Below, piece after piece: positions 1 through 61,100 of a stretch of 64,000 nucleotides of DNA. This DNA is from Azolla caroliniana. Its lineage: Eukaryota; Plantae; Polypodiophyta. Within the stretch, counting starts at the first letter, position 1. The number at the start of each line of letters is the position of its first letter. Made by a program: the position numbers and the translations under genes. The DNA lies in the NCBI GenBank assembly GCA_043228905.1, contig JBHGNT010000008.1:8680001-8744000 (forward strand), read 5' to 3'. Below the pieces are notes generated by a model. The model was given only the letters and a program-made list of their open reading frames with translations, made no database searches and was not told the DNA's origin.

Positions 1-186
1 TTCTCTGTATAGTGTTGGTTTGGAGTCTTGTACTCCCGTGGTTTTTCCCGTACAGGGTTTTCCACGTTAATCCCTGTGTGTTCGCGTTTTGTTTCTCTTT
101 GTGGTTCCTATTTTCTGCTGCATTGATTCGCGCTTACTCGGTTGTGGCCGAGAGAAGAAGGAGAATCGAAGCGTCGATTCCTAACA
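1..186 (+). repeat. 5' LTR (distal part) of copia A
   Basis: Appears identical to 4735-4920; ends in CA just before the PBS. Confidence 0.95.
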
Positions 187-189
187 AAC

Positions 190-201
190 TGGTATCAGAG
201 C
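190..201 (+). other. Primer binding site (tRNA-iMet)
   Basis: TGGTATCAGAGC, 3 nt after the LTR end. Confidence 0.95.
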
Positions 202-216
202 GGGTTGCTGCAGAAA

Positions 217-4293: not shown

Positions 4294-4303
4294 AGGGGGA
4301 GTT

Positions 4304-30270: not shown

Positions 30271-30480
30271 ACTCATTCCTTCTCTCAAAGTTCGACTCCT
30301 CTCATAGTACTAATCCTTCTCTGTCTTAGTACTATTCCCCAACAATAGTACTAATCCTTCTTTTAGTACTAATTCCTTCTCTGCCTTAATAGAGTTCCTG
30401 ACAGTTTGAACCGATTTCCTGTCTGGTCTTTTCTCTCCCTCCTTTCCTACTAGTCTCTTATTTCCCTTTTTCTTCATCCC

Positions 30481-31644
30481 ATGGCCACCGTTAGCGCTGA
30501 AGAGTATCAATCCGTTTTCTCGGAATTTCAATGCTTGAAAGAGAAGTTTCATGCTTTGGAACAAGAAAATCAACGCTTGTTGGGGGATCTTCAGCAAATT
30601 TCCTTAGAAAAGCAGCAAACGCAACAACAGCATGGGGAACTTGCGTTACGCGTGCAACAACTCGAAGCAACCATCGTAGCAATGCAACAACAAGGGCACG
30701 GAGCACAAGGGATTCATAAAGAACCCAAGATTGGCCTTCCCACGAAGTTCGATGGAACGCGATCGCAGTTTAGAGGGTTTCTTAACCAGGTACGGTTAGT
30801 TATTCAAATGCATCCGTCCCGATATCCCACCGATGCATCACGAGTGGGTTTAGTAGGCACGTTGTTAAATGGCTCAGCATTAGCATGGTTCGCTCCGCTA
30901 CTAGAAAAGGAATCTCCAGTACTAAATAATTTTGAAGAATTCATAAGTGAGTTTAAAGCATGTTTTGGAGATACTGACAGCATAAGGACTGCAATCAACA
31001 AAATCCGGCGATTACGCCAAGGTGACCGTCCAGCCTCCGCATATGCTGCAGATTTCCGCCTACTCGCCGCCGATATCCCCTGGGATGATCAAGCATTGAT
31101 GGAGCAGTTCCGCTATGGTCTACGCAACGATGTCAAGGATTTACTCTTGACTTTCCCTGAAGAGCCAAAATCATTAACAGAAGCAATCAGTCGAGCGGTC
31201 AGATGTGACAACCGCCTCTTCGAGCGACGTTCGGAACGACAATTTCAGATGCCAAGGGCAAGATCCGAGCCTACCTATGCCTCAGTGGTAGCAAAACCTT
31301 TTCAAAGGGAGTCACATAATGCGCCTCCAGTAAGTATTCCAACTCCAATGGAAATTGACACTACACGTCGTCGTGGGCCGCTATCGGAGGAGGAAAAGCA
31401 ACGACGCCGAACAAACCGATTATGCCTTTATTGCGGTGGACCAGGGCATATCGCGATAAACTGTCCCCATAGACCAAGAAGGCAGGTAAACCAAGTCGTT
31501 GTTAGTTCTGACTATACTAAACCCGAGTCTATTTCAGTAGGAATCTCTGATAGTCCTCATAGTCATAATAGTCCTAATAGTACTAATAATCTCGCAAACA
31601 AATTTGATGTCCTTAGCCAATTAGAAGAAGAGTTAAACGACTAA
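30481..31644 (+). CDS. Gag of chromovirus H
   Basis: Coiled-coil N-terminus, PTKFDG, LRQG..ASAY...F, PMEID, CLYCGGPGHIAINC. Confidence 0.95.
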   Translation: MATVSAEEYQSVFSEFQCLKEKFHALEQENQRLLGDLQQISLEKQQTQQQHGELALRVQQLEATIVAMQQQGHGAQGIHKEPKIGLPTKFDGTRSQFRGFLNQVRLVIQMHPSRYPTDASRVGLVGTLLNGSALAWFAPLLEKESPVLNNFEEFISEFKACFGDTDSIRTAINKIRRLRQGDRPASAYAADFRLLAADIPWDDQALMEQFRYGLRNDVKDLLLTFPEEPKSLTEAISRAVRCDNRLFERRSERQFQMPRARSEPTYASVVAKPFQRESHNAPPVSIPTPMEIDTTRRRGPLSEEEKQRRRTNRLCLYCGGPGHIAINCPHRPRRQVNQVVVSSDYTKPESISVGISDSPHSHNSPNSTNNLANKFDVLSQLEEELND

Positions 31645-34600
31645 GTCCAGCCAAAATAGGAGCCGTTTGGTTGGACAGCCCTAGATCTGTGCAGCCCATT
31701 AGTGGTTCCATTCCCTCTAAGCAAGTTAGTGATGTGTTCGTAGCCCAAGTAGCAGTTAGTACTAAAAGTACCCCTCCAGTACATACCTTAGCCCTTCTAG
31801 ATTCCGGAGCTAATTCTTGCTTCATGGATAGGAATTTTGCCCGAGCTCATCAGATATCTCTCAGAAAGCTCCCATGTCCAGCCTCAGTAGTAGTCATTGA
31901 TGGTCGTCCCATTGCTTCTGGTAATATCATAGAAGAGTCGGAACCCGTTAATATTGTCCTAGATAACTTAACATGTGTAGTATCATTTAATATTATTAGT
32001 ATTCCAGAACACCCCATAGTTTTAGGATTACCATGGTTCGAGTTACATAACCCAGACATAGATTGGAGGACAAGGGAAATCCGGTTGCAACAAACCCAAG
32101 GACCTACCCAGAAGGTTGCAACCATTTCGCTACGTCAGTTGCGTGAGGAAGGGCGCAAGGAGGAAATGTTTCTCTTCGCAATATCAGTACAACCCTCCAG
32201 CACCACCAAAGAGGAGTCCACCGTTCAACTTCCCGAGAAGTATCGTCAGTATGCTGATGTGTTCGATAAAGTACAAGCCAACACACTTCCTCATCATCGG
32301 CCGTACGATTGCGCCATCGACTTACAACCGGGAAAAGAGCCGCCATGGGGGCCGATCTACAATTTGTCACCAACCGAGCTAGAAGTCCTTCGAGCCTATA
32401 TAGAGGAGAATTTGGAGAACGGTTTCATTCGGCATTCGAAATCTCCAGCCGGCGCACCCATTTTCTTCGTCAAGAAAAAAGATGGCTCGCTTCGACTCGT
32501 TGTAGATTACCGTGGCTTGAATAAGGTCACAGTAAGAAATAGGTATGCTCTTCCCCTTATCTCAAGTCTTTTAGAACGGATCAACGGTGCCAGGTTCTTC
32601 ACGAAGATCGACTTACGAGGAGCCTATAACCTCGTACGGATCCGACCAGGAGATGAATGGAAGACCGCGTTTCGCACCAGATATGGGCACTTCGAGTATA
32701 CGGTCATGCCGTTCGGACTCACTAATGCGTCGGCAGTCTTCCAGCACATGGCGAATGATATATTTCGAGATCTCTTGGATGATTTTTTGATCATCTATTT
32801 GGATGATCTACTGGTTTATTCAAAGACCCAAGAAGAACATGATTCTCATGTACTATTAGTACTAAAACGACTTCGAGAACATGGTCTGTATGCAAAGTTA
32901 GAGAAATGTAGTTTCGGGTGCAACCAAGTGGAATTTCTCGGCTATGTCATCTCCTCAGAAGGCATATCTATGGACCCAGCCAAGGTCAAAACGGTGATAG
33001 AATGGCACACTCCGCATTCGGTGCGGGATGTGCAATGCTTCCTAGGCTTTGCAAATTTTTACCGGAAGTTCATACAAAATTACTCAAAAATTGTGCTGCC
33101 TCTCACACAGCTCACCAGGAAGGGACAATCATTCATTTGGTCTAAAGAGACGGACATGGCTTTCGAGAGTCTTAAGAAGGCGTTTACATCAGCTCCAATT
33201 TTAGGTCATGTGGATCCGGAAAAACCATTCATTATCGAAGCTGACGCATCGGATTTCGCATTGGGGAGCATTCTGTCACAACAGGGTAACGACGAGAAGC
33301 TACATCCTGTGGCTTTCCACTCCCGTAAGTTTGACGCCGCCGAAATCAACTACGAAATTCATGATAAAGAGCTATTAGCAATAGTTGATTCTTTTATGCA
33401 ATGGAGGCATTTCCTGGAGGGATCTCCTCATCAGGTCACTGTATTCAGTGACCACAAGAACCTTGCCTACTTTCAAGATGCTCGTGTACTGAATCGACGT
33501 CAAGCTCGGTGGGCCCACTTCCTCACACGCTTCGACTTCAAAATTACATATCGTCCGGGGAAGCACCAAGGGAAGGCAGATGCATTATCACGGCGTTCGT
33601 ATCTAACACCACGTCCCGGTGAGCCAGCTTTCGATAACCAGAAGCAAGTAATCTTGGGTCCAGCACGACTGCAAGCAGCACAGGTCTTTGACATACCCGT
33701 GGATTCCGACATTACCAATACTATACGTGAGGACTTGAAGACTGACGCTTTCGCCCAAGCTATACTAGCACAAATTGACCCCTCTCGAGCGTCATGTTCA
33801 CAATCACAATCACCAGGTACGGATTATCGGCAATTCAAATACTGTGATGGATTACTCTTCTTTAAAGAACTTTTGTATGTTCCTAATGGTTCTTGCCGCC
33901 TTCGAGTAGTACAAAATTGCCATGACACATATACAGCAGGACATTTTGGTAGTACTAAAACATTAGATTTAGTACAACGATCATTCTGGTGGCCCCGTAT
34001 GCGACAATTTGTCGAAGATTTTGTTCGGACTTGCGATACATGCTGCAGAGCGAAAATGCCAAGACATCATCCATATGGTTTATTAGAACCATTACCAATT
34101 CCAAGCAAGCCATGGCAATCCATTGCTCTTGACTTCATTACAGATCTTCCAGTCTCTAAGGGATTCAGTGCGATTCTCACAGTGGTGGATCGATATACGA
34201 AGATGGCTCATTTCTTACCATGTACTAAAGAAATATCTAGTGAAGACACCGCCGAAATTGTCATGCGGGAAGTATGTCGGCATCATGGACTCCCTGATAA
34301 TATCATCAGCGATCGTGGACCCCAGTTTGTGTCAAAATTCTGGAAGCACCTTTTTAAAATGCTGAAGGTCACTTGTAACCTCTCCTCCGGCTACCACCCA
34401 CAAACCGACGGTCAAGCCGAACGAACAAATCAAACACTGGAGCAGTATCTGCGGTGCTTTCTCAACTATCATCAGGATGACTGGGCAGATATTCTTCAGT
34501 TCGCCGAATTTGCCTATAATAACGCTATCCACGCATCGACTAAAGTCACGCCATTCTACGCTTATACGGGATATCATCCCCGGTGGTGTATCCTTGAAAC

Positions 34601-35228
34601 CCCAGAAGTGTCCACAAATCCTTGCGCGGAGGATCGTTTGGAGCGGTTACGCAAGATACAAGCGGATTTATCTACTCAACTCCAGCAAGCTCAACAATCA
34701 CACAAGGACTACGCAGATCGTCATCGACTTCCATCCAGTTTTAACATTGGAGATCGGGTGTGGCTGCTACGACGACACATCAAGACTACTCGCCCATGTG
34801 AAAAGTTGGATTATCGGCGATTAGGTCCTTTCCGTATTATCGGGAAGATTAATGATGTCGCTTTTCGTCTCGAGCTACCTCCGCAACTTCGGATACATCC
34901 GGTGTTTCATAGTTCTCTCCTCGAACCCTATCACGAGAGCACTATCCCAGGACGTACTATACAACCACCACCTCCTATCGAGCTCGAAGATGGACCTGAG
35001 TATGAGGTCGCTGCCATCCTCGATTCCAAGATTGTTCGCAACAAGCTCTACTATCTAGTCGATTGGCTAGGATATAGTCCCAGCGAGCGTACTTGGGAAC
35101 CGATCGAGAATGTGACCAATGCTCGTGCTCTTCTAGAAGACTTCCATCGACGATATCCCGAGAAACCGGGTCCTCAATCCAAAACGACTCATGGAACTCG
35201 TCGTTTTAAAGGGGGGATAGTGTCATAA
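31638..35228 (+). CDS. Pol of chromovirus H (PR, RT, RNase H, integrase, chromodomain); -1 frame to gag
   Basis: LLDSGA, YLDD, ADASD, H-H-C-C, SDRGPQF, GPF and C-terminal EYEV..ILD...YLVDWLGY....TWEP. Frame is open from the slippery site. Confidence 0.95.
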   Translation, partial: RLSPAKIGAVWLDSPRSVQPISGSIPSKQVSDVFVAQVAVSTKSTPPVHTLALLDSGANSCFMDRNFARAHQISLRKLPCPASVVVIDGRPIASGNIIEESEPVNIVLDNLTCVVSFNIISIPEHPIVLGLPWFELHNPDIDWRTREIRLQQTQGPTQKVATISLRQLREEGRKEEMFLFAISVQPSSTTKEESTVQLPEKYRQYADVFDKVQANTLPHHRPYDCAIDLQPGKEPPWGPIYNLSPTELEVLRAYIEENLENGFIRHSKSPAGAPIFFVKKKDGSLRLVVDYRGLNKVTVRNRYALPLISSLLERINGARFFTKIDLRGAYNLVRIRPGDEWKTAFRTRYGHFEYTVMPFGLTNASAVFQHMANDIFRDLLDDFLIIYLDDLLVYSKTQEEHDSHVLLVLKRLREHGLYAKLEKCSFGCNQVEFLGYVISSEGISMDPAKVKTVIEWHTPHSVRDVQCFLGFANFYRKFIQNYSKIVLPLTQLTRKGQSFIWSKETDMAFESLKKAFTSAPILGHVDPEKPFIIEADASDFALGSILSQQGNDEKLHPVAFHSRKFDAAEINYEIHDKELLAIVDSFMQWRHFLEGSPHQVTVFSDHKNLAYFQDARVLNRRQARWAHFLTRFDFKITYRPGKHQGKADALSRRSYLTPRPGEPAFDNQKQVILGPARLQAAQVFDIPVDSDITNTIREDLKTDAFAQAILAQIDPSRASCSQSQSPGTDYRQFKYCDGLLFFKELLYVPNGSCRLRVVQNCHDTYTAGHFGSTKTLDLVQRSFWWPRMRQFVEDFVRTCDTCCRAKMPRHHPYGLLEPLPIPSKPWQSIALDFITDLPVSKGFSAILTVVDRYTKMAHFLPCTKEISSEDTAEIVMREVCRHHGLPDNIISDRGPQFVSKFWKHLFKMLKVTCNLSSGYHPQTDGQAERTNQTLEQYLRCFLNYHQDDWADILQFAEFAYNNAIHASTKVTPFYAYTGYHPRWCILETPEVSTNPCAEDRLERLRKIQADLSTQLQQAQQSHKDYADRHRLPSSFNIGDRVWLLRRHIKTTRPCEKLDYRRLGPFRIIGKINDVAFRLELPPQLRIHPVFHSSLLEPYHESTIPGRTIQPPPPIELEDGPEYEVAAILDSKIVRNKLYYLVDWLGYSPSERTWEPIENVTNARALLEDFHRRYPEKPGPQSKTTHGTRRFKGGIVS

Positions 35229-43377: not shown

Positions 43378-45964
43378 TTAATCTTCTTCCAAAATGGCCC
43401 GGATGTTTGGCTCTGTTGTGGTGTCCACGTCTGGAGGCGACATAGGGCCCGTAGGTGCATCATGGTGGGGCTCCCCTATTTGGTCGGAATGGTTTCTCCC
43501 AGTGTCGCAGTCGTCGTGTGTGGTCGGTTCGGGTACGGTGGGCTCTTCTTGAGCTAGTGGGTTGGGCTCCGCCGTCGTTGTGCTTGCGGTCGGTCGCGGC
43601 TCTGTCTCAATCGTTACTTCCTCCGTAGTGTCGGCCATCTTTGTACGTTCCAGGGACTGGGGCTGCGATTCCGCCTAGCCCACACCGTTCTCCGTGTGGT
43701 CCGATGATAGCGTGGGCTCGTGCAGATGAACCTCCTCTTGGGTAGTGGTTTCATTTTCTGGTACTATGGGGGACTCCGCTCGTCGGTCCACGTTGTTCAC
43801 CGTCGTTGTAATTTCTGGTGATCTGGCCTGAGGTTCCTGTTCTTCGGTCGTGCCCGGAATTGGCGTCGCGCAGGATTCCTCATTTGTTCACGTGTTGCCG
43901 GTTTGTGTGATCTGGTGAAATAGCTCCTCCTGGCTTTCACCAAAATCGTCTAAGAGTTGCGCGAGTTCTTCGGAGTGTTGGTCCGCTAGCGCACGATAGT
44001 CTTGCGCTAGGTCCTCTCGTACTGCCGCAATGCTCTTGTCATTTAGTTTATAGAAACCTCGGCCATCTTTTCGCCGATTCTCCCAGTCCGCACGATACGC
44101 GTGCAATTCCGTTGCCTGGGTTGCCCACGCCATCCATCCTTTGTCCAGCACCGTTTTCAATTGCGTTGTGAACCTCTCCCAATTTGTTTGGAGAAGGATA
44201 CGCACGTTTTCTGTGATGGCCTGGCAACAGTTGCGTGCATCCTCCATTGACTTCTAGAGGTTTGCAATTTCTTGTTGTTTAACCACCGCCGCTTCTTCGT
44301 ACGTGGCCTTCAGGCCCGCCCATAACTGGGATTCCTTTGCATGTTGTTCTTCTAATTTCCCCATTTCATTGTTTAGGCGGATTTCGAGTTGATGCCTTCT
44401 TTCCTTTTCGACCACTAGTTGCTCGTTGAACCATACCTTCTTTTTCTCTAATAAGGCCCGAAGTCCTACGATTGCCGCCTCCGATTTCTTCGCTTCATCC
44501 TGTAATTGGGTGTTTTCGTCTTTTGTCCGGATGTACTGAGCTACCTCCGTAGCAAGTTTGTCTTCAAGGATTTTTACTGCCTTCTGGTCGTTAGCCCATA
44601 TCTCCATTTCTCTGTCTGAGGATTGGCGCAGTTCAGCTCGAAGGCGGTCAATTTCTGATTCCACAAGTTGCACGGCCCTTTTTGCTTTCGAGGCGATGGC
44701 GGTCTGAGCCTCAATTTCTTCCTTCAAAGAGTCGATGGCGTGGTTTGGTGGCGGAGTTGTGTGTTGCGCCGTAGTCGCGTTAGCTTCCAACTCCGCGATG
44801 CGTTTGTTGGCTTTTTGCAGTTCGGCTTGGGTCATTTTCACCTTCTTCCAGACATTCTTATTTTTAATGGCCATCTCCTTGGCGCCCGGCTGACCTTTGC
44901 CAGTTCCCTATGGATTTCGACTAGGTCCGTATTTAATGGGGGTAGCTCCATCCCTACTCGGCGTACCCCGGCGTTCCTCTATCTGCTGACCCTGGCTAGC
45001 CAGTCCTCAACGTCGCTCTCCGTCGTTTGTGTCAAGGCGCGCTCGATCATCTGGCACTCTGCGTGCTCCTCGGCCATTCATTGGGAGACTTTTATCTATT
45101 GTGTTGCCAGGAATTCCATGATCTCAAAAAAGGTTCCGAATTGTAAGAGGGCGCTGAACTCATGGGTCGTATCCAGGATATCTGGATATGCCAACTCATG
45201 GGTCGTAATGATCGGTCGTGGCTCTTGGATGATTTTGAAAGTGGTATTGTGCTCCGTAGCTGTGGAGCCATCGCCGTCAGTCGTTGTTTCTACCACCGTG
45301 GGGACGTCTTTGACCAATCCCCACCCATCTTTCCTGTCCAATCTACATCGTTTTGGTCTAGGGCTATCCTGCCATGTTTCGGTGTCGGGCTCTGGGGTTG
45401 CTGCCACGGAACGTGTCGGCTGTTCCTCTTGCGTTGCCCGTGTGTTTGGCTAGGCGGGAGGTGTTGTCCGCGTGTCTGGCTGGGCGGGTCGGAGGAGGAG
45501 TATGGCCCGAAATATCGTTGCAGTGCCTCTACAAGAGGGATTTCGAAATGCCTTTCGCCTAGGGAGGACAGGTCCAACTTTTTCTGGATGGAAGAGTTGG
45601 TGACCGTGTCGATGTTCAGTTTCCTAGCGATGTCCATGGCATCCGGGTGTGGGGGTGCCTCTGCGACCCGGATGTACCCGTCCAGGCGTTTCTCCACGAG
45701 CCATCAACGTAAGGCAGTAGAGATGAAGATCAGCATCGCCAGAGTAGGTTCGTGGGAAGGAGACTGGTGGTTGCGGTGGGTTGAAGCTCTGTGATAGGAT
45801 GGAGGAGAAGGTGAGGGGGAGCGATGGGAGCGCTGATAGTTAGAAGGTGGGTTTCTGTTTTGTGCAGAAGATCTTCTATTTCCTTCTTTTTGTGGCTTAG
45901 GGTTCATTGGGCGGTGAGCCATCGTGGTGCCGCGTGTTCTTGAACTAGGAGTCTGTGCATGCAT
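43378..45964 (-). pseudogene. Extra sense-strand ORF 3' of integrase in K; coiled-coil-rich, unknown function
   Basis: Collinear ORF pieces (45704-45964, 45290-45697, 45096-45407, 44254-44874, 43888-44247, 43378-43638) with heptad-like E/K/Q/L/A composition. Confidence 0.65.
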
Positions 45965-46036: not shown

Positions 46037-48196
46037 TTTTCTTTTTTTCGTAACGGTTATATACAGCCTATTTTTACATTATGGTACAAGTGGGGCCGCC
46101 TATTTACGCCGCGGGTTCTCCGGCTTTGTCCTGTTTGGCGGTGAATGGGTTAGGTGGCGTAGAGCCCAGGCAAGGTTTAAGGCGAAACCCATTCACCTTT
46201 TGTCGTACTACTTCCCCGGCCAGCGTACCTAGTTGGAATGTGCCCTATTCCGCTCCAATTATCTAGTATGGGCCGGTCCAGCGGAAGCCTAACTTCCCTG
46301 GCATATGGCATGCGGGTTTGGAAAACCAGCACCGCCCGACCGACGGCGAACTCCTTTTCTCTTGCGTTCCGATGTCGATCCACAAACGCTTTACGCCGTC
46401 GTTGTTCCTGCTCCAACACAGCCATGTTGTGTATGCGTTTTTCCCCAAGTTCAAGTAGCTGGTGGAGCCATACCTCCTCCGACTTGGCTTTCGATAGTCA
46501 GTCCCATACCTGAATTCGCAAACTGGGTACCTAAAATTCGACTGGCATCACAGCCTCCAGCCCAAACGCTAGTCGAAATGGTTTTGACTGTATGCTTGTT
46601 TTGTAGCTAGTTCTATACGCCCATAACGCACTCTGTAATTTGGTATCCCGGTCCGTTCTATTTTCATTGACGATTTTCTTCAAGATGGTCTACAACGTCT
46701 TGTTGGTGGATTCCGCTAACCCATTCGCTTGTGGATAATATGGTGTACTCTTTTTATGGACTACGGCATAATTATTTGTTAGTTCCCAAACCACCGTATT
46801 GAGAAAGTGACTCCCTTGGTCACTGATGAGCTCGATCGGACAGCCGAACCGGCACCATATGTGCTCGTAAAGGAATCTGGCTGTGACGGTTGTTGTATTT
46901 TCACGTAGTGCCTTTGCTTCTACCCACTTGGTGCAATAATCCGTAACTACCAATATGTATTTATTGCCCATACGGGCTGCCGCCGGTGTGAAGGGGCCCA
47001 CAAAATCCAATCCCCACTTTTGGAAGGGGTCTAGCGGTAATACGGGTTGGTGTGGCATCCTTGCGCCCTCCGCGGGCTGGCCCATCCGTTGACACAAATC
47101 ACACTTTCTACAATATTCGGATGCGTCCTTTTGCGTTGTTGGCAACCATAAGCCCGCCTACCATACTTTCTAGGCTGTAACATCGCCTGCGTAATGGCCA
47201 CCTGCCGTGCCGCAGTGCGCCTCCCGTAAAACTGCTTCCTTCTCATCCTGACGTACCCCACGTTGCCAAATGTCGTCACTTCCTTTGTGATATAAAACTC
47301 CTTCTATGAGGCAGAAGTGACGGCTTCGAACGGCTAGTTGTTTCTTCTCGTCCATGCGTAATTGTGCTGGAGGCAGTCCCATAGTCAAAAAGTACGTCAT
47401 TTCCATAAGCCACCGGTCCGGAAAGGTCGATTCCGTTCTTTCTGCTAGTGCTGCTACCCGCAGGATGTCGGCGTCCGGAAAATCGTCGTCATCTTTCTGT
47501 ACTATTTCTTCATTCTCAAGTCTGCTCAAAAAATCTACCACTGTGTGTTGCGCCCCTGGTCGGTGCTGGATTACGAAATCGAATTCTTGGAGCAGCAGCA
47601 TCCATCGCGCTAATTTCCCTGTCAAGGCTTGTGTCTCCACCAAATACAGCAGCGCCGAATGATCCACGTGGAACGTGAATTTCCTCCCTAGTAAATAATG
47701 CCGGAATTTATTAATGCTATAGATCATCCCTAGCGCCTCCCGCTCCATTGTGGAATAATTACGCTCTGCTGTTGATAATTTACGACTAGCGTAGTACACT
47801 AGCCGGTACCAGTTTGGTTCGATGAGCTGCATTAGTGCACTTGGGTGAAAGCATGCGAGTGGAAACAATTAGCTATGTCCTTGACATAGCTAATTAGCTA
47901 TGCAAAAAGCTACCATTGATAAATAGTCATTTTAGTAAAAAGCCATCATTAATAAATTAAGTATGCAAAAAACTACCATTGAAAATACTACAGTGTTTTA
48001 ATTACATATGTAAATGAATGCCATAAATGTGCAACATAAATTGATGTGTGCACCATAAATGTGTACCATAAATTATATATCGAATTCCTAGGTCCATTAT
48101 GCATGATCCTTTGCCACATCACGTAGGCCATCTCTAGTTGAGTACTGTGGGTTAGTTGCTACCACTGTTGCTAAACCCTATCGAGTCCACCTGCCA

Positions 48197-48960
48197 CCAC
48201 TCTACACTGAGGGGCCGCTACTATGCGTTCCAAGCATCATCAAAGAGCTGCTCAATCTGACGGGGTTCTCTTCTCTGTGACACTCTACACTCAGGGGCCA
48301 TTACTGTGCATTCCAAGCATCATCAAAGAGCTGTTCAATCTGACGGGGTTCTCTTCTCTGTGCCACTCTACACTCAGGGGCCGCTATTGTGCGTTCCAAG
48401 CATCATCAAAGAGTTGTTCAATCTTATAGGGTTCTCTTCTCTGTGCCACTCTACACTCAGGGGCCACTACTATGCGTTCCAAGCATCATCAAAGAGTTGT
48501 TCAATCTTACGGGGTTCTCTTCTTTGCGCCACTCTACACTCGGGGGCCGCTACTGTGCGTTCCAAGCATCATCAAAGAGTTGTTCAATCTGACGGGGTTC
48601 TCTTCTCTTTGCCACTCTACACTCAGGGGCCGCTACTGTGCGTTCCAAGCATCATCAAAGAGCTATTCAATCTGACGGGGTTCTCTTCTCTGTGCCACTC
48701 TCACTCAGGGGCCGCTACTGTGCGTTCCAAGTATCATTGGTAATTGTTCAATCTGACGGGGTTCTCTTCTCTGTGCCACTCTACTCTCAGGTGCCTTCTA
48801 TGTGCGTTCCAAGCCTCATCGGTAACTGTTCAATCTGACGGGATTCTCTCCTCCATTGCCATCATTCTATACTCAGTTGCCGCTACTGTCCAGTCCCGGA
48901 TTGCTTCCACATTTCGATTTGACGGAGTTCACTCATCCAACGGTAACATTCTACACTCAG
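48197..48960. repeat. 83-bp subterminal tandem repeat, about 8 copies decaying rightwards
   Basis: Unit CCACTCTACACTCAGGGGCCGCTACTGTGCGTTCCAAGCATCATCAAAGAG...; ORF-track starts recur every 83 nt. Confidence 0.93.
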
Positions 48961-49182
48961 TTGTCGCCATTGGTCGGTCTTGGATTGCCTCCTCAACGGT
49001 TTGATCCAACGGAGTGAAATCCTCTACTGTTCGGTCTTGGATTGCAATAACTTTTCTGTCTATTGATTATCTTGTGTATTGTTGTGTCTAATCTTGTGTA
49101 TTGTGGAATATTTTTGTGTATTGTTGTTGCCCATAGCCATCTTTAATACTTGTTTTTTTTTCTAGAAATTTAGGGTTTTAAC

Positions 49183-52100
49183 ATGTCCAGCCAAATGGAA
49201 GGGGAAGAAGGGTGTTTAGAATTACCCCTCAATGATCATAAGGATAGGGATGATGCTATCAGGACACAACAAGCCATACGAAACTATTGGGCAGAAAAAA
49301 AAGGAAACATCGCCAATTGTTGAAGGATACGAAAGCCACACTCAGTAAAGGTAAGGATAGTTTAGCTGAGAATGTAAGTAATGCGACTACCATCATAGAG
49401 AGAAAGGTTGTAGACTATTTCAATGTTCAAACCAAGCACATCAGCAATGAAGAAAAGAAGGTAGTACTTTATGGAATATGTAATGATCCATCGATAAAGG
49501 ACTTAGTTGATTGTGATGGTCTTAATGCAAACATATCATCTATTTTAGTAAATAATCTTCGTAATAGTTTCGTATCCATGAGCAGGTCAGAAGATGATCT
49601 TGTCTTAAAAAGGTCTAGTCTAATGATGTTACTTAATAGTGATGTTGACGATATAAACATCAGTGAGCTATCTAAGGTAATCGGTGTTAGTAGAAAAACA
49701 GTGTACAATACAATGAACCGTATAATTTCCTCGGGTGAAGGAACTAGTCTACTAAAGCTAACTACAAGATGTAAGCCAATGACACCCATAACATTTGAAA
49801 TCAAGGATGTAATCACAATGTTTTGGACTAATGAGAGTAGGGTTTCACCCAATAAAAAGGATTTATGCAGGAAACGTGTTGGAAGAAATCAATACGAGGA
49901 CCATCCCATTCATCTTCTTGATGTACCTCAGGTATTTACATTTATCTCAACATTTGTTTTGACTCTACACGGAAAGTTAATTAGCTCAGTTAGCAGAAAA
50001 GCTAATTAGCTTATCAGTTACATTTACCTCAATTAGCTACTAGGATAGCTACTACATAGGTAACTGGCTACCCTCAATAGCTACTACCATGATAGCTAAT
50101 TAGCTATTCTCAATAGCTAATTTAGGTACTACCAGATAATTAGCTGTACTGGTAGCTAGTTAGCTATTTCGTTATTACCAGCTAATTAGCTACTAGGAAA
50201 GCTAATTAGCTACCATGATAGCTAATTAGCTACTAGGATAGCTACTACATAGGTAACTAGCTACTCTCAATAGCTACTACCATGATAGCTAATTAGCTAT
50301 TCTCAATAGCTAATTTAGGTACTACTAGATAATTAGTTGTACTGGTAGCTAGTTAGCTATCATGGTAGCTAGTTAGCTATTTCGTTATTACCAACTAATT
50401 AGCTACTAGACCAGCTAAATAGCTACCATGATAGTTAATTAGCTACTAGACTAGCTAATTAGCTACTAGACCAGCTAATTAGCTACTAGACCAGCTAATT
50501 AGCTACCATGATAGCTAATTAGTTACTAGGATAGCTAATTAGCCACCATGATAGCTAATTAGCTATTAGACCCGCTAATTAGCTACCATGATAGCTAATT
50601 AGCTACTACGACAGCTAATTAGCTACCATGATAGATAATTAGCTACTAGGACAGCTAATTAGCTACCATGATAGCTAATTAGCACTAGAATAGCTAATAA
50701 GCTACTAGAATAGCTAATTAGCTACTAGAATAGCTAATTAGCTACTAGGATAGTTAGCTAGTTACGAGAATAACTAATTCCCCTTTATTACGCAGGTCGA
50801 TTTATTTACTAGGTTCAAACGAATGCATCCAACTATCAAAGTTCAACTACAAACATTCGAGTCTCTTAAGACACACTTTGTGAGACGCTTAAAGGATCGA
50901 TACACATGTTGTTGCATTTACCATGTACAGATGGGTTTTCTGAAGGACTCTGTTAATCTACTACGTCACCATAGCGCATCCCTAACTAATACAGTTTGCA
51001 CATGTGGGTGCCCAATTTGTTGATCAAGCCCGCAAGAGGAGTGTAAATCATCTGAGCACGTTATCTCTTCCATGAGTTATTTATTAGATTCAATATTGTG
51101 TCCGAGAGAAACTGACGCTATCTTCCATATTCATAAATGTGTCATGGGTTTATGTCAAGATTGTGGCCCTACTAGATTTAGGTGGTGTCCAAATGAATTG
51201 AGTAGTGAAATATTGATCTCTGTGAAGTTCTTTGAGTCAGTGAACACCAATTTCGAAGGAAAGGTGTGTAAAAGAAAGGATCTAGTTCGGAAGATGCTTA
51301 AACCAAGGGATTTGGTGTCTCTGTTTGTAGTATCTCTAGGAAAGTTCATTAAACACAACTTCATTTATTCATGGCAGGCCCATCAGTTTAAGACTTGCAT
51401 ATCTGATTTCCCAAATGATGTAGTAGTCTCAGTAGTAGATTTCGCAGAGAATTATACTTTCAAGCAGCAGAATGAAATTCAATTTATGCATTGGTGTTCA
51501 GTTCAGGTAACCATTTTTGTGCACATAACATATTTTCGAGTTTCAGGTGATGTTAAAAAAGTAATTCATTTCTTTATTTCCGATGATAAGAAGCATGATA
51601 CCTTGTTCGTCCAACACTGTTTTAAGTTACATTGGCAGTGGTTATTAGCTCAACGTTTGGAGCTTACTCAACATTGGGTCTGGTCTGACGGAGCTGCATC
51701 ACAATTCAAGGCTCGACGTCCATTTTATTTTGTGGGGAGGTATCCTGCTATAACAGGTTTGGAGATGAGATGGAATTTTTTTGGGTCTGGCCATGGTAAA
51801 GGTGAACATGATGGTGCAGGGGCTGTTATAAAGCAGGCACTTACCCATGAACAACTAAAGACAGATGGTGTGCACATGAATTGTGCATCACATGTAGTTG
51901 AATTTTTAAGAACAAATATGTCAACGAGTGCCACAGGTGTTTATTCCTCGCAAGTCCGAGATATCAAACGTGAATTTTGGGAAGTGAAGATAGATGAAGT
52001 AAATAGGGAGAAGACCTGGGAGTGCCAAGGAATTCCCGAATTGCGATCTCTGCATGTTGTTCGCGGTTATTCCAGGTTGGATGGTCATTGTATTGCGGTT

Positions 52101-52637
52101 AGAGAATTGACTTGTTTTTGCTTCCATTGTGTGCAGGGAAATTGGAGATATTGTCTAAACAAAGCATACATTCAGAATTGGGAGTATCACACTCTGAATG
52201 ATAAGGAAGCAGTTGATGGAGAAACAGGGCAGAATGCTGACTTCACATATGAGGGACTTGGAGATACTTTGAGTGATGTCCTGAATGTTGGGGATAACTT
52301 CGTTGTAAATGCTGAAGAAGGCAATTCAGAGGGTGCTGATTTCTATATATTAAAGTGCACGGTTAGTAAACAATGTGCAAGGCAGAATATTGTAGATGCA
52401 TGGGGAAATTTTGTATCTGCCGGGACATTCTACATCGAAGGCATTTTTTATGCAAAACTAGATGACTACGAATATGTGTACAGGCTGTTAGAAGACAAAC
52501 CAGTGGCGTACATGTACTCTCATTTGGTCAGGTGCATCAACGTCCCAATGTCAGAATACAATAGCTGCTCAGGTTTATACACCGTTGGTGCTAATGTGTA
52601 TGAATGTATTTACAATAGTATGCCATGGAATTTGTAG
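49183..52637 (+). pseudogene. Sola2-type DDD transposase; exons 49183-49931 and 50796-52637
   Basis: Phase-0 GT-AG intron 49932-50795 with branch CTAAT. Motifs FW..SRVSP.KKD, TCCCIYH, Cys cluster, DFAENY, WSDGAASQFK, GHGKGEHDG. Frameshift in the A-run at ~49300 and an in-frame TGA at 51021-51023. Confidence 0.85.
49980..50780. repeat. Array of palindromic TAGCTAATTAGCTA units filling the transposase intron
   Basis: Dozens of copies separated by short spacers such as CTAGGA and CCATGA. Confidence 0.95.
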
Positions 52638-54759
52638 CTACAAGTAGCACTTACCATGTTCTCTTGTAAAACAAACATGTATTTCGCGAAAACAGTTAAA
52701 TAAATTCGTTTGGAATCAATTTCTTGTATACAGTTTGCTTTCTGTGCTTCTTTCTCAATAAAATCATGTCTTTTTTGTTAAGTTTTAAGTTATAAGTTAT
52801 AGCGAAATAGTCATCAATAGCTAATTAGTTGTACAAATGCAACTAATTAGCTGTCAATAGCTAAATAGTCATCAATAGCATGAAATCAACAATCTGCAAC
52901 ATATTCCTCAAATTACACAGTAGATAAGTACAATGGGAACAAGTAATTAAATTCTTCATTGAATAATGTCATCTCTTTACATATTTATAAATTACCATTG
53001 GAAATGTCTACAAATCTCCTATAAACAGCTAAGCTCTTGTTAGTCAGTGGAACAAGTCTACATATATTATCCACATATCGAGCTCGGTATGGAGTCCACA
53101 ACCATGCACCTAGTTGGCAGCTCACTGTTTGCACCAGGTACTGTTCAGGCATTTCCTCGGGTAGAATGAGACAGCATCTCCGAATATTGAAGTAGTGCCG
53201 GAAATGTTCTGTATCCAAAATCAATGTATTGTCGGCATTATATTCAGGCCAAGTAGCCCAAAAATCAGAAAGTCTCTTGTATCTTGCAGCTTCCATTTGC
53301 TCACAATTTTCTCATGCCCATTGACCTTTAAAACGACTTCGCCATTTTGGGAAGAATCTTGCCAAACACTTCCACACATCTGATTTTGGTTTTTCACTCC
53401 AAATAAACAAATCAAAGTATTGCACAGCCCACTCTAGAAACTGATTTGCGTCCTTCCTTGGTTGCATATATCTCACACTCATCAAGACTTTATCAAGCTC
53501 CAAGATCAAGGCTCTTCTTTCGACTTCTAGTGGTTTAGGTTTCCATTCCTGAAACTGAGCCGTTGTTACACCATTTTCTGGTAGGATACGATCAATCTCA
53601 ATCAGCTCAGGTTCGGCCGACACAACTGGCGTCCTTTTCCTCTTCAAACCCCTAGTCGATTGTGTTGGGCCTGGCTTCACATTCTGGTGCTCTTGTTTTG
53701 TCGACTTAGTTATCAATCCTTGGATTACCTCGGTGCATGTAGCTACTGATCTGTTCGATATCAGTCCACTGGTATCACATGCTGCATCTACCTACAACAC
53801 CAAGTCATCCGTGCAACATGCTTGATCAACTTGTGTGACCAGATCACTTGTGTTAGTTGCTACATCTACTTTCAAGATGGGGCCCTTTAAACATGCCGCA
53901 ACATCAACAGTATCCACACTGCCATTGGCCTTACGAGCAATAGAATCAAACCCTTTAGACTCTGCAACATCAGAAAACACCAACATATTCACACTCACAA
54001 AGTAACTAACAGTCTCACAAAACAATATCCTGAAAATCAAAGAGTTTCAGTCATAGAACAACACTCTTCAAATTATCTTGGAAAAACATCATAGAGTTCC
54101 ATTACATAATGTGGATCAAGCAACAACCAATTTGAGGTTTTACTTGTCCAACAGGATAGTAAAACTTCATAAAACCCTAGCAAAATCCCTAAGCTAACAA
54201 TCATATCCAACTAAACAGTATTTCGCTCCACTACGTCTGGGCCCCTTGACCGAGTAACTGGTCTTGTTCCCGATTGTGGCCCCTTCTTCAGCCTTTTTCT
54301 AGTCGGTTCCCCATTTAGCCTTGCTTCTTTCACCCAATGCGCAAGTGTGTCCTCCTCCGACAACCTTCCCATCACCTCAGCAGCTAATTGCACATCAGCC
54401 ATTTCTTGAACTAGCTTTTCAAGTACAGAGGGATCTGTTTGAACATTTTCAGTAGTTGGGCTCGGTGGGGTGGAATCAAGGTCTTGAGATTCGAAGAAAT
54501 GTTGCATCAAGTGTTCATAAACACTATTGTTGTGAACCTCAGTTTTACATGTTGTTTCCACTATTTCATGGCATTTCACATCGTTGCCTAATTCAGTACA
54601 CTGTTCCAAAAGAATAGCGTGGAGTTTATCTGAAGGAGATGTGATAGCAGGACTCTTACTTTCAGCCACGTTGGCAGCAGTATCCTCATCTGTTGCAGCG
54701 TCATCAGCACCAGACACATCATGTGCCGTCCTTAATCCACAAGATTCTACAATAACATG

Positions 54760-56200
54760 GCAGCTATTTAGGATAACTAATTAGCTACTTTACTAAACTA
54801 TGGTAGAAGCTAGGATAGCTAATTAGCTACTACGATAGCTAATTAGGATAGCTAATTAGCTAGTACGATAGCTAATTAGGATAGCTAATTAGCTAGTACG
54901 ATAGCTAATTAGCTAGTATGATAGCTAATTAGGATAGCTAATTAGCTAGTACGATAGCTAATTAGCTACTTTACTCAACTATGGTTGTAGCTAGGATAGC
55001 TAATTAGCTACTTTACTCAACTATGGTAGTAGCTAGGATAGCTAGCTAATTAGCTACTTTACTCAACTATGGTAGTAGCTAGGATAGCTAATTAGCTACT
55101 TTACTCAACTATGGTAGTAGCTAGGATAGCTAGCTAATTAGCTACTTTACTCAACTATGGTAGTAGCTAGGATAGCTAGCTAATTAGCTACTTTACTCAA
55201 CTATGGTAGTAGCTAGGATAGCTAATTAGCTACTTTACTCAACTATGGTAGTAGCTAGGATAGCTAATTAGCTACTTTACTCAACTATGGTAGTAGCTAG
55301 GATAGCTAATTAGCTACTTTACTAACTATGGTAGTAGCTAGGATAGCTAATTAGCTACTTTACTAACTATGGTAGTAGCTAGGATAGCTAATTAGCTTAC
55401 TAGGATAGCTAATTAGCTACAATGAAAGCTAATTAGCTACTTTCTCAACTATGTAGTAGCTAGGATAGCTTATTAGCTACTAGGATAGCTAATTAGCTGC
55501 CAGTAGTTAATTAGCTACTAGGATAACTTATTAGCTACTTTACACAACTATGGCAGTAGCTAATTAGCTACTATGATAGCTAATTAGCTAGTAGGATAGC
55601 TAATTAGTTGCCAGTAGCTAATTAGCTACTAGGATAGCTAATTAGTTGCCAGTAGCTAATTAGCTACTAGGATAGCTAATTAGCTTTTTTACACAATTAT
55701 GGTACTAGCTAATTAGCTAGTACCATAGCTAATTAGCTACTAGGATAGCTAATTAGCTACTAGGATAGCTTATTAGCTACTTTACACAACTATGGTAGTA
55801 GCTAATTAGCTACTAGGATAGCTAATTAGTTGCCAGTAGCTAATTAGCTAGTAGGATAGCTAATTAGCTTTTTTACACAACTATGGTACTAGCTAATTAG
55901 CTACTAGGATAGCTAATTAGCTGCTAGGATAGCTAATTAGCTGCTAGTAGCTAATTAGCTACTAGGATAGCTTATTAGCTACTTTACACAACTATGGTAG
56001 TAGCTAATTAGCTACTAGGATAGCTAATTAGTTGCTAGTAGCTAATTAGCTAGTAGGATAGCTAATTAGCTTTTTTACACAACTATGGTACTAGCTAATT
56101 AGCTAGTACCATAGCTAATTAGCTACTAGGATAGCTAATTAACTAGTAGCTCATTAGCTGCCAGTAGCTAATTAGCTAGTAGGATAGCTAATTAGAAAAG
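54760..56200. repeat. Large TAGCTAATTAGCTA palindrome array including a ~42-bp higher-order unit
   Basis: Unit ACTTTACTCAACTATGGTAGTAGCTAGGATAGCTAATTAGCT repeated ~54968-55400; lies within an accessory-gene intron. Confidence 0.95.
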
Positions 56201-57569
56201 ACTAAGCTTATTAGCTACAGTATGGTATATCTGTTAGTTTTCTGCACTCATTTGGTAGAGCTGTACTGCAATCTCCCAAATAGAATGCAGCAATTCGACA
56301 GGCATGTTGAAAACAAAGCAGATGGTATGTGTGGTTGCATGGTTGTAGGTGAACCAACAAAGACGCAGTTTTGTCCTCCACACCTAACCCGCAAGCAATG
56401 CAACGTGCTTGAACTGTCAATAAATCATTTTCTGGTTCTGCTTCATTTGGTAAGGGAGCAAGAATGTTCAGGTCTAAATCCTGTCTGGTCCTTACCATTC
56501 CCTCCACAAAATGTAGCTGCTTCTTAAGGCAGCTAACTACCTATTCTTGATGAATGTATTGTTCCTTCAACGCAACAGAGAAATTTACCGATTAATTATT
56601 CCTATTGTTGAAAGATACACCAACTTTGCTCAGGAATCGTTAACTTACTTGAAGCTTATCCAAATTGTAATCTACAACAGTATTTACACCTAGAAGGTCC
56701 AGGTTCATTGAAAGAACCTGGAACTCTATTTGCAGTTGTATTTTACGCTGGGGATCCAGTGGCCCCTCTAATTCAAGCTCCTGTTGCGCAACCTATTCCA
56801 GATAATGCTTGATTAGCACATTTTACCCTTAAAGTTATTTATAACACAATCACATAGCAGCAAAACAATAGTTACCTAAATCTTATTTCTAATCGTTGTA
56901 ACAGCGGAAGTAACTTTGCTCTCCATTGCAGAAGCCATTGTGGCTTTCTCTAAATCAGTCTTAAAAAATGCCAATGTCTCACAGGCTTCATGGACATTTT
57001 TTAGCATATAGCTAACCAATGTCTCACCTGTATCATCGACATTGGCTTTCCTTGGGTGTCGGTGTGTTGTATGCCCCCGGTCTTGCTGGGAGTCGGCAGT
57101 TGCATCAACAGCTGCCATGCTCCAAAATCTGTCTATTTCTTGTGCCAAGGTCCCCATCTTTCGGCATCTTTTTACCGATGCCTCACCATAGACTGCCCAA
57201 GCTACCCTATACATTTCAGGGTCTCTGGATTCCTTCGTTGTTTTGCAGTACTCATATGCAAATGCTCTAGCAAATGAAACTGACAACTCATTGTTGACTG
57301 GGATCTCCTGATGAACTTTCTGGTGCAGTCTCATGCAGTCATCGTACAAGTCGGCTCGTACATGCTTCAGCTTGACCTTGCCTTTGACTCTAGGCACTGT
57401 ATATACTGTCATCCAGTCTACATCACTGATCAATTTATCACTTAGGACAACAAGGTCAACACCCTCGAGTGACAGACCATAGGTGTTGTGGAAGTCCTCC
57501 TTTGTCTCGCAAAATTTTGCGAAGTTTAGCACTCTCGTATACGGAGGAACGAGCCATCTGAAATATCAT

Positions 57570-58130
57570 TTCAGAAATCAGAAATAGTGCAAAATCAGAA
57601 TATGTGAGAATCAGAAACCCCAATCAACAACAACAAAAATGGTGCAAAATCTTTAACTTAGCAAATCGGAAACCCTAATCATAATTTGTTTTCAAAAATT
57701 TGAAATCAGAAACCCTAATCAAAATCTGTAATCAGAAGTTTGAAATCAGAAACCCTAATCAAAATCTGTAATCAAAAGTTTGTAACCAGAAACCTTATTC
57801 AGAAATTCTAATCAGAAATTTATAATCAAAAACCCTAATCAGAAATTTCAATCAGAAACCCTAATCAGAAATTTCCATCACAAACCCTAATCAGAAATCC
57901 TAAACAGAAATTTATAAACAAAAAACCCTATTCAGAAATTCTAATTAGAAATTCTAATCTGTAATCAAAATTTGTAACCAGAAACCCTATTCAGAAATTC
58001 TAATCAGAAATTTATGATCAAAAACCCTAATCAAAAATTTCAATCACAAACCCTAATCAGAAATTCTAATCAGAAATTTATAAACAAAAACCCTAATCAG
58101 AAATTTCAATCAGAAACCCCAATCATCACT
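57570..58130. repeat. AATCAGAAA / AAACCCTAA (telobox-like) tandem array in the first coding intron of the accessory gene
   Basis: Nine perfect AAACCCTAA copies counted, plus variants. Confidence 0.88.
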
Positions 58131-61100
58131 AAAGACAGGATTAAACACAAAAAAAAGTAATATAAACACACCTGTTGCTACTCCCCGATTTGCGAGACAT
58201 CCTTGTATGGGACTCCAAGGACTTCGCCTTATTTGATTTTGGGGAAATATGAATTGGCACCAAAGTTCAGACAATAGTCAAAAAGAAAAAACAAATGTTT
58301 GGGGTTTTTGTAACTGAAACATACCTGGACGATGATCGAGCGGGTTCTGTGTTGTAGCTCTCAATCTGCAATGTCGATTTTCTGCTGTTGCGGGAGCTAC
58401 GTCTGCGTTCGTGCTCTAAGTACTCCATCTGCGTTCAAAATCAAAATTAGGCTAAACAGGAAATTGATGACATTGAAGTCGACCTTAGATGATGGTGCTA
58501 TTCCCCAAGTTCCACTACGTCTGAAACAGAAGTTCAAATATTTGAGTTTTTTCATAAATTAGTTTTTCAAATATTTGATTTTCCCACAAAAAAGACTAGC
58601 TAAACAAATAGCTAATTAGCTATGGCCATTTTAGTAGCTAATTAGCTATAATAGTGTTTCCACTCGCATGCTTTTACCCACTTCCTATTGCTATGTCTGA
58701 GGCGTCGACGAACACGTGGAATGGCTTCACCCAAACTGGGGGTTTTATGACGGGGGCATGTGTGAGCATTATCTTAAGTGCCTCATAGGCCTTATCCTCC
58801 ATTGCAATCCATTGGAAAGGAGTCCGGTGTACGGCAACATGTAATGGCCTAGCGAAGTCCGCCAAATATCGCATCATCCGACTGTGCCACCGTATTTGTC
58901 CTAAAAACCGGCTGAGCGATTTAGCGTTTGTCGGAGTTTTGGCTTGTGTAATCACGGAGATCTTGTTCGGATCGACCGATATCCCCTCCTTGCTGACTAT
59001 ATGGCCCAGGAGAGTCCCGCTGGTCACGGCGAAAGCACATTTCGCGGGATTCAAACTTAAGCGTGCGGTGCAGCAACGTTCCAAGTCTATTGTAAGTGCG
59101 TAAAATGGTCTATTGTTCTCCCATATATCGCAAAGTCATCTAAAAAAACTTGCATGAACGCCGGAATGTATTCCCCAAAGATCTTCATAATTGTCCGTTG
59201 AAATGTTGCCGGCGTCGTCTTTAGTCCGAAATGCGTCCGTAATAGTTACGGCGTTTAATTTTCGGTAATCTACACATACCCGTATTTTGCCGTTTTTCTT
59301 TGGAACGACCACTATCGTGCTTAACCATGTCGCTTATTTAACTGGCCGTATGAACCCCGCCTTCAGGAGCTTTTCAATTTCTTCTTTCACGCGAGTCGCG
59401 TAGTTCGGGTTCATGCGGTAGCAGCGCTACTGGACGGGTTTTGCGTCTGTTGCTAAATTGATCTTATGCTGATAGAACTTAGGATCTAACCCCTTCATGT
59501 CCTCATGAGCCCAAGCGAACACATCTTTATATTTCGTGAGTAGTGCGATCATCGTGTTTCTCTAGTCCGGCCTTAATTCCTTTACGATGGAGAGGAAACG
59601 GGGTTCCAACTCCGTACCCACATTTACTTCTTCCAAGGCGGAAGCGGTGACTCGTCGTGAAATCTCCTTTTGCCTTTTGAATTCCGCTCGTGCTCTACTG
59701 AGTTCCACTATGGACTCTAGGTTTGGTTCGTAAGCCTCGTCATGGAGAACAGTGGCCATGGCATATCCTGCCGCGGTTGCGATGACATCGATTTCAAACA
59801 GCAGAATGATTCGTGGGTGCTCATCTAGATATGCCTCTAATTCTGCATCCTCCACCCTAGCCAGCATATTTATTTCTTCTGCGTATAATGGTGTTATACC
59901 CTTAGGTTGTGGCATGCTTCCTTCCGTAGGTACGCGAACCTTGGTGCGTCCGTGTCGGAAACTAATACACTTGTGTTGCCAGCTCTACTTGATATTTGCT
60001 GCCCGAAGCCATGGTCTGCCCAGAAGCACTAGGTACGCCCTTGGGGCGTCCAAGGCGAGGACCACCGCCGAGATGTCGAAGCGATGTCCGCCCACGATAA
60101 TGCCTATTTTGCAAATTAACCCCAATGGTCGTATTGAGCGGGTATCTGCCATTCCGAGCCAGAATGGGCAAACCTCCCATTCTGAAATGCCTAACTGCTC
60201 GCAAGTTTTCATGTTAATTACATTGACGTCTAAGCTACCATCGATTACGCATCCAGGAATTTCCTGTCTGTGTTGAATACTAATGTAATAGTTGGGTTGT
60301 GCTAATCCACTACCGGCGGTTCGTCGCTAACGTCTATAAGGTTTGTAGCAATGCTCACCCCGGGTATGCCTATCACCCGTTCTTCCATGGTCTGGCGGAA
60401 GCGTGGGACTAGCTGCAATAGTTTCTCCATGGTTAACGTTATCTCGTAGCCCGCTAATGCCTGCCAAATGGGGTACGGGACCTGTCCTTCGTCCTCTGCT
60501 CGCTCCCTCGCGTTCGCGGACTCCTTCTGCATGCGCTCTGTATTGGTCGCGTTTGCTTTTTCCACCCATGCCTGGGCTTGTTATCGTATCTCGTCTTGCG
60601 TAGCTCAATTAGCCGTTTTTGTTTGCCGGCGTGTCGTGACTTGCTGCACTTCCGTCGTAATCGTATTGACGGTGGGCCCCTTTCCATTGCGTGTTGGGCA
60701 TTGCGTGGCATAATGTCCTGGCTGTTGACAAATAAAACAATGTATGCTTGATTAACCCTTCTCGGATCCTGGTGGTGTGTGCCGCTCCCCTGGTGCTACT
60801 TGCTCCTCGCGGTCCGGCCTTGTTTGTCAGAACGCACGCAGTGGTTGTTGTTGGTCCCATCGTTGTTCCTGGTGTTGCTGATCTCCCGAGCTTTCGTCGT
60901 AATGCGGGTGATCTCGATATTGTTGCGGCTTACCACGATAACCATTGAAGCCGCCCCATTTGTTTGTCGGCCGATGATTCTCGTAGCGCCAGCCCCCTTT
61001 AGCATAACTCGGATGTCCACGATAATCCTCGTCCTCTGGTTCGTCTTCCTCGGAGTCATTGTGATTTTGGCGATTCCGGTGGTGCCAGTCATCCCGTGGG

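Follow-up and report, generated by a model that had tools for sequence, protein, structure and literature searches.

DNA transposons of the Sola2 superfamily are bounded by short terminal inverted repeats (TIRs) that carry 5′-GRG termini. They are known from animals and amoebae (Repbase), have a 4-bp target site duplication (TSD; PMC3627910, PMC10741241) and in Dictyostelium and Polysphondylium include elements carrying Fanzor1 (PMC3627910). Sola elements have further been reported in moss (PMC10741241) and, as repeat-table entries, in ferns (PMC6786969, PMC6890710), the whole word ‘Sola’ being absent from nine text supplements of PMC6786969, and background to Sola classification is given in PMC5751038 and 10.1101/2021.09.26.461848. 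An earlier note on the DNA studied here had described Sola2 as a transposase-only group found mainly in animals and protists; the Fanzor1 carriers show that Sola2 is not transposase-only, and Sola had already been recorded in moss and ferns. We report that a stretch of 64,000 nucleotides from Azolla caroliniana (contig JBHGNT010000008.1, positions 8,680,001 to 8,744,000; hereafter the window) contains a decayed member of a family of Sola2-type DNA transposons that have two genes, the transposase gene and, convergent to it, an accessory gene. Neither Sola elements in plants nor a cargo gene (Fanzor1) in Sola2 is new. For the conserved convergent partner gene no account was found in the literature searched, and Repbase and the 2009 Sola paper, which lay outside the coverage of that search, may already hold a plant Sola2 element with a second open reading frame (ORF).

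Two transposon systems of flowering plants, VANDAL/VANC and Spm/CACTA TnpA, are known to counter silencing in a sequence-specific way; CACTA elements have CACTA termini and a 3-bp TSD. VANC, described as dicot-specific, binds motifs that are particular to its family and have been amplified in introns (PMC5735166), and TnpA binds clustered motifs of its family and activates copies (10.64898/2026.08.24.746577).

A two-gene element

The transposon spans 47843–58679 of the window (10,837 bp) and is flanked by ACTT on both sides (Table 1). The TIRs are 25 bp long, with GGG at both ends, and are identical at 24 of 25 positions; the span of 47839–58683 proposed in the earlier note was right, taking in both TSDs, and the TIRs that it had called exact are near-exact, with one mismatch. 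No further TIR copy was found within the window when up to six mismatches were allowed. Translated separately, the two flanks match adjoining parts of the RT_RNaseH_2 profile on the minus strand (positions 1–42 from the right flank, 46–99 from the left), and because these parts are consecutive the insertion interrupts a Ty3/Gypsy-type pol within its RNase H, where the earlier note had placed it. Read depth in run X15 gives an independent sign of the right end, lying in the thousands to tens of thousands over the right part of the transposon and falling from ~32,000 to 17 in the bin past the right TIR.

The accessory gene encodes, in order, an N-domain, a coiled coil, a RING-like finger, an acidic region and an NIF domain. 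Its pairing with the transposase was scored in relatives (the best 80 of 359 confirmed loci, collapsing to 58 clusters) by leave-one-cluster-out hidden Markov model searches for the N-domain, RING and NIF in 309 kb of upstream and 338 kb of downstream DNA. Of the 24 clusters that extend 5 kb or more downstream, 14 had an accessory domain, and three shorter loci (L004, L007 and L012) also carry one. All but one of the domain match rows (34/35) lay downstream of the transposase on the opposite strand, and in the eight clusters with both domains the N-domain lies ~1 kb upstream of RING, the same as in the window. RING was the domain kept most widely (12 clusters), and reversed-sequence controls gave no match for RING or the N-domain. 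The pairing persists at transposase identities of ~32–48%; it is old and not private to the window copy, and the accessory gene is very probably an integral, selected part of the transposon lineage. Neither a transposase of another superfamily nor a private, neutrally evolving accessory gene, the two outcomes that the earlier note had set against its own reading, was encountered.

A strict search for paired TIRs and TSDs in the long relative loci gave no convincing full element. At L062:6596-14516 a TIR-like pair surrounds the transposase (~7.9 kb) with no accessory match and with differing 4-bp flanks; this locus may be a member with a single gene or one with a deletion. A related family with 59% transposase identity (L002:1790 onward) appears to be inserted in a LINE-like (long interspersed nuclear element) reverse transcriptase and has a convergent ORF without NIF. 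L067 holds a second NIF fragment upstream (1008-1328, minus strand), and L067-like DNA lies inside L068 (region 17764-19975), an arrangement that suggests clustered or nested copies of one lineage.

Transposase

Exon 1 of the transposase diverges fast (24–40% identity) and gave a weak Pfam HTH_11 (helix-turn-helix, HTH) signal (E 6e-5, below the cut-off), exon 2 matched no Pfam family and the transposase had no MULE Pfam match. A set of 4,049 candidates contained 124 homologs of exon 2, and those that bear names come from a liverwort, two conifers, ferns and a rotifer. In 38 aligned transposases D139/E142/N143/Y144, D222, H257-G258-K259-G260 and D263 are invariant, the blocks reading DxxENY, the D of WSDG, QFK and HGKGxxDG; the D codons of the window exon lie at 51438 (DFAENY), 51687 (WSDG) and 51810 (GHGKGEHDG). 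Compared by eye, a published Sola2 alignment (PMC3627910, supplement S10) has the same blocks in the same order, and upstream SR.PxKKD, C.C..H.N and C..C..C motifs are common to both. The element, which shares with Sola2 the DDD motif series, the 4-bp TSD and GGG termini on the TIRs, is very probably of Sola2 type, the motifs having been compared by eye. ACTT does not strictly fit the AWWT reported for amoebal Sola2 families (PMC3627910), and a literature search on Sola2 with GRG found no paper.

The transposase tree, which carries no labelled Sola sequences (59 rows; P0068, P0089 and P0117 were left out for short coverage), only sets off a plant-associated clade of 47 rows (99/97), outside which fall animal-type relatives, the rotifer protein P0116 among them. 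Inside this clade the window falls in a 16-row group adjoining a 21-row group of contigs. The Sola2-type motifs and the plant lineage of the earlier note are supported. The window copy carries a frameshift of one base within an A-run of exon 1 (near 49295) and an in-frame stop at 51021; both are absent from L001, where the exon 1 frame is open, and from P0001. Transposase dN/dS (nonsynonymous to synonymous substitution rates) was ~0.20 for the window against L001.

Accessory protein

A single 1,252-nt contig of run X20 joins 58562–58324, 58227–58172, 57557–56874 and 56790–56749 at GT..AG sites, with accessory introns 1–3 spliced out; the RNA labels of runs X18–X20 are guesses, and no run listed as containing the stretch is recorded as RNA. 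Later accessory introns and the transposase intron are predicted from GT/AG sites and homology, and to this extent the convergent spliced gene of the earlier note is borne out. The window copy of the gene has four in-frame stops, two in the last exon and one at the last codon of exon 3. At three of the four, nearly all the read depth of other copies has a sense codon, and two of these three read-corrected sites could alternatively be splice acceptors. Open homologs, spliced or uninterrupted, are P0121, P0217 and P0230, and the named homologs come from the ferns Adiantum and Pteridium.

A search of 1.84 billion representatives gave the N-domain 134 matches at E ≤0.001, of which one is clearly noise, and many of the homologs are labelled in fern genomes as ‘hypothetical proteins’ of the host. 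Its predicted model is confident (predicted local distance difference test, pLDDT, 95). Fold searches with this model (Foldseek PDB, VIA wide with a best Z of 2.4, VIA second look and a viral library) gave no match and a sequence search of solved structures returned coiled-coil noise only, a lack that does not show the N-domain to be a new fold. For the N-domain of a homolog the ESM Atlas listed DUF1985, the VANC domain, at 0.86 and the plant mobile domain (PMD) at 0.83, which we treat as a lead only. A complex prediction for transposase exon 2 with the N-domain scored 0.00 with alignments unused and is evidence neither way.

Among 65 long N-domain proteins RING was present in 20, NIF in 10 and both in six; with NIF in just 10 of the 65, this domain is optional. 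A Pteridium transcript encodes the N-domain, coiled coil and RING without NIF, and the L002 accessory protein ends in an acidic and basic tail, again without it. In the window the NIF domain reached 27.8 bits in Pfam against a cut-off of 21.8, and for the L004 homolog the modelled structure matched those of CTDNEP1 and SCP1 (E 1e-9 to 1e-8). FCP1/SCP phosphatases of the C-terminal domain (CTD) have the catalytic motif DxDx(T/V). This motif is replaced by DLNG or DLNN in all seven homologs scored and by ELDK in the window, and because it is broken the domain is likely a pseudo-phosphatase. Pfam scans of the accessory gene gave RING-like and NIF matches only, with no TnpB/Fanzor match.

Three side observations concern this protein. 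Internal 13-aa repeats stand ahead of the NIF domain (window 53700-53900, minus strand), and VANC proteins are reported to carry tandem peptide repeats in their variable regions (PMC5735166). Four Adiantum gene models (P0161, P0225, P0270 and P0277) fuse the N-domain to a retrotransposon gag; these may be either mis-spliced nested insertions or a sign that the N-domain also rides on long terminal repeat (LTR) elements. Finally, an 803-nt contig of run X18 holds a diverged NIF relative over 53339-53653, with 48 differences.

Motif arrays

The three kinds of array distinguished in the earlier note were all recovered, with 83-bp, 20/40-bp palindromic and 13-bp units. The 14-mer TAGCTAATTAGCTA, counted with up to two mismatches, occurs 86 times in the transposon, with 82 copies in the two large introns, three subterminal, one intergenic and none in the exon compartments, and is absent from the 53,163 window bases outside the transposon. 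The 83-bp array has no motif in common with the intron arrays. Of 17 AAACCCTA motifs in the window, which we take to be telo-box-like, 11 sit in accessory intron 2.

Relatives also have arrays directly ahead of exon 2, built of unrelated motifs (e.g. L002, L004, L006, L007, L031, L035, L040, L067, L069 and L073); other loci, e.g. L009 and L015, show no array there. The TIR start recurs exactly in L007 and L067 and with up to two mismatches in L002, L017, L045 and L073, and an inverted repeat similar to ATGTC-GACAT is shared with L002 and L007. Conserved ends combined with changing arrays suggest two recognition systems. Eight families had a candidate left end and five of these a scorable intron array; within 200 bp of the left TIR, the intron-array motif recurred in three of the five (window, L002 and L007), 45–60 bp inside the TIR (shuffle p 0, 0.002 and 0.018, respectively), and not in L067 or L073. 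CG and CHG are absent from 13 of 15 hand-picked family motifs, the two with CG belonging to an outer clade, and AT-richness alone may explain this.

Abundance and genomic context

The stretch or part of it is contained in 20 of 22 listed runs from 11 studies, labelled as several organisms and as leaf or plant metagenomes. In run X5 the main-family contigs have depths of ~3,300–4,500 and most of the divergent variants ~15–25, contig depth not being a true copy number, and the window differs from nine main X5 contigs at ~26 of 1,620 bases. Both genes were covered at high depth in all 30 bins in the DNA runs examined. The family has deep coverage and near-identical copies, and we take it to be young and to number hundreds of copies with both genes.

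Copia and Gypsy LTR retroelements are nested throughout the window (1–64000), and no host gene was noticed among its ORFs of at least 130 aa. Read by eye, 127-4293 (plus strand) holds an uninterrupted 1,388-aa Copia-type gag-pol ORF, and 30454-35228 (plus strand) an apparently intact Ty3/Gypsy element with a 396-aa gag overlapped by a 1,203-aa pol that ends in a chromodomain-like tail. The retroelement interrupted by the transposon seems to have an extra broken ORF with a long coiled coil past its integrase (44254-45964, minus strand).

Table 1. Features of the two-gene transposon, in window positions (UTR, untranslated region).
Feature	Position	Strand	Basis
Left TSD, 4 bp, ACTT	47839..47842		sequence
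Left TIR, 25 bp, start GGGTGAAAGCATG, start common to distant families	47843..47867	+	sequence
Subterminal ATGTC-n3-GACAT inverted repeat, then family motif TAGCTAATTAGCTA	47873..47901		sequence
83-bp tandem array, x8.3, upstream of transposase start	48197..48889	+	sequence
Transposase exon 1 with HTH-like region, start codon ATG at 49183	49183..49931	+	profile scan, homology
Transposase intron, GT..AG, palindromic motif array inside	49932..50795	+	predicted from splice sites and homology
20/40-bp units of palindrome TAGCTAATTAGCTA	~50030-50780 and 54810-56195		sequence
Transposase exon 2, Cys-rich region and likely DDD core	50796..52637	+	homology
Accessory last exon: 13-aa repeats, basic stretch, NIF/FCP1-SCP-fold domain	52985..54029	-	predicted
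Accessory acidic low-complexity exon, basic stretch at end	54214..54780	-	predicted boundaries
Large accessory intron, palindromic array, 54 motif copies	54770..56210	-	predicted
Accessory exon, coiled-coil end and RING-like finger	56214..56564	-	predicted boundaries
Accessory exon 4, coiled coil	56649..56792	-	5′ junction in X20 contig; 3′ end predicted
Accessory exon 3, conserved ~150-aa N-domain and helices	56876..57557	-	X20 contig
Accessory intron 2, 13-bp array and 11 AAACCCTA motifs	57558..58171	-	skipped in X20 contig
13-bp AATCAGAAA-type array	~57660-58125		sequence
Accessory exon 2, probable start codon (ATG) at 58200	58172..58227	-	X20 contig
Accessory exon 1, likely 5′ UTR	58325..58562	-	X20 contig
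Two subterminal copies of family motif	58609..58648		sequence
Right TIR	58655..58679	-	sequence
Right TSD, ACTT	58680..58683		sequence

Discussion

The two-gene architecture and its conservation are observed; the regulatory function proposed for it is our interpretation. We give a probability of about 0.4 to the reading that the accessory protein binds its family's own arrays and keeps cognate copies transcribed against host silencing. VANC and TnpA act on dense family-specific motif clusters in non-coding DNA (PMC5735166, 10.64898/2026.08.24.746577), and for this reason the accessory protein is favoured as motif reader and activator. The transposase would cut and paste via the conserved TIRs, giving a slow recognition system for transposition and a fast, family-specific one for the arrays; the N-domain may read the family motif, the coiled coil may oligomerise on dense arrays, and RING with the optional CTD-phosphatase-like domain may act on host chromatin or transcription factors by recruiting or modifying them. 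In its fullest form, which we hold a little more tentatively, this would be an ancient seedless-plant Sola2 lineage with its own sequence-specific anti-silencing, in which a DNA-binding domain (a new fold or a remote PMD/DUF1985 relative), RING and a CTD pseudo-phosphatase co-evolve with motif arrays.

Several observations weigh against this proposal. Ten of the 24 long clusters show no accessory domain, and since most matches are decayed, loss, truncation and true absence of the gene cannot be told apart. The N-domain belongs to no Pfam family and is mildly basic (mean net charge +2.6); the Atlas scores lie below 0.9, a level often reached by shuffled proteins, and the window's own N-domain found unnamed clusters only. 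In some Adiantum gene models it is joined to parts of retroelements, so its range may extend beyond Sola. Cognate copies can be activated by the AtMu1 transposase on its own (10.64898/2026.08.24.746577), and the array motif beside the left TIR fits transposase binding too.

That last point leads to the best of the rivals, unlikely in our estimate, with the transposase as motif binder. The arrays would then have arisen by amplification of its subterminal sites and would serve to pair the ends or in autoregulation, and the accessory protein, like the second protein of Harbinger or CACTA elements, would assist transposition as a cofactor or adaptor. This rival is favoured by the motif copies next to the left TIR of three families (window, L002 and L007), by the HTH-like stretch in fast-diverging exon 1 and by the palindromic motifs, which suit a dimeric HTH; yet 82 of the 86 motifs lie in introns, kilobases from the ends, no subterminal copy turned up in L067 or L073, and a site for the transposase is already provided by the conserved TIR with the ATGTC-GACAT element, which is separate from the motif. 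Less likely again, the accessory protein would act on proteins only, as a RING ubiquitin ligase with pseudo-phosphatase docking that removes a silencing factor or tunes the transposase, the arrays being intron satellites without a reader. The wide retention of RING (12 clusters), the CTDNEP1/SCP1 fold (E 1e-9) with its DxDxT broken in seven of seven homologs scored, and the fact that arrays are not all palindromic agree with such a role, which leaves unexplained both the unrelated arrays at one intron across families and the motif beside the TIR in three of them. A captured host fragment in neutral drift (a Pack-type passenger) would account for the four stops of the window copy and for most of the distant matches being pseudogenes, and is highly improbable against the constant position, strand and domain order at ~32–48% transposase identity, the sense codons at three of the four stops and the open homologs.

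With Sola2 elements of animals and amoebae (Repbase) the window element shares the motif series, upstream Cys motifs, 4-bp TSD and short TIRs, and it differs from them in its separate plant-associated clade, its transposase intron with arrays and its convergent N-domain/RING/NIF gene. Sola2-Fanzor1 elements are alike in the Sola2 transposase, a second gene in the 3′ half and the 4-bp TSD (PMC3627910), whereas the second gene here is not TnpB/Fanzor and is paired with the transposase across the whole clade. Likeness to VANDAL/VANC lies in an accessory gene combined with family-specific short motifs, tandem in introns and upstream DNA (PMC5735166), and in an accessory coiled coil (PMC13547354). 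By contrast, the superfamily differs and there is no MuDR transposase, the motifs, often palindromes, occur in subterminal DNA as well, and the accessory protein has RING and NIF, its DUF1985 homology being a sub-threshold lead only. The VANDAL-like system foreseen in the earlier note survives in part: the gene is old and not private and the arrays are family-specific, and no Pfam or fold match ties the protein to VANC. VANC21 (PDB 9LNK according to PMC13547354) was absent from the fold-search results, the presence of 9LNK in the searched library being unconfirmed.

Spm/CACTA TnpA is similarly a second element-encoded protein with family-specific clustered motifs near termini, but it is transposase-derived and acts at termini, whereas the motifs here are mostly intronic and the accessory protein has no transposase similarity; the GGG termini and 4-bp TSD also set the window element apart from CACTA. 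PP7L is a PPP-family protein, whereas the phosphatase-like fold here is of the HAD (haloacid dehalogenase) FCP1/SCP type and fused into the accessory protein, whose PMD likeness is the Atlas lead at 0.83. The MAIN/MAIL1 PMD proteins with PP7L (PMC7156037, 10.1101/2024.09.27.615353) are alike in joining a transposon-associated helical domain to a phosphatase-like partner, and PMD and DUF1985 have been reported as structurally alike (10.1101/2024.09.27.615353, PMC13547354).

Conclusions

The N-domain adds an unannotated domain, confidently folded as a model, with more than 100 homologs, and even without anti-silencing a long-kept second gene is a new architecture for the Sola2 superfamily. If the proposed function is true, VANC and TnpA would be joined by a third sequence-specific anti-silencing system, one that probably predates VANC by far and would be the first to have protein-modifying domains built in. 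A conserved partner gene with swappable arrays in another superfamily, in ferns and a sister clade, amounts to a set of natural protein-motif pairs, which could show whether the anti-silencing strategy arose repeatedly and how its specificity evolves.

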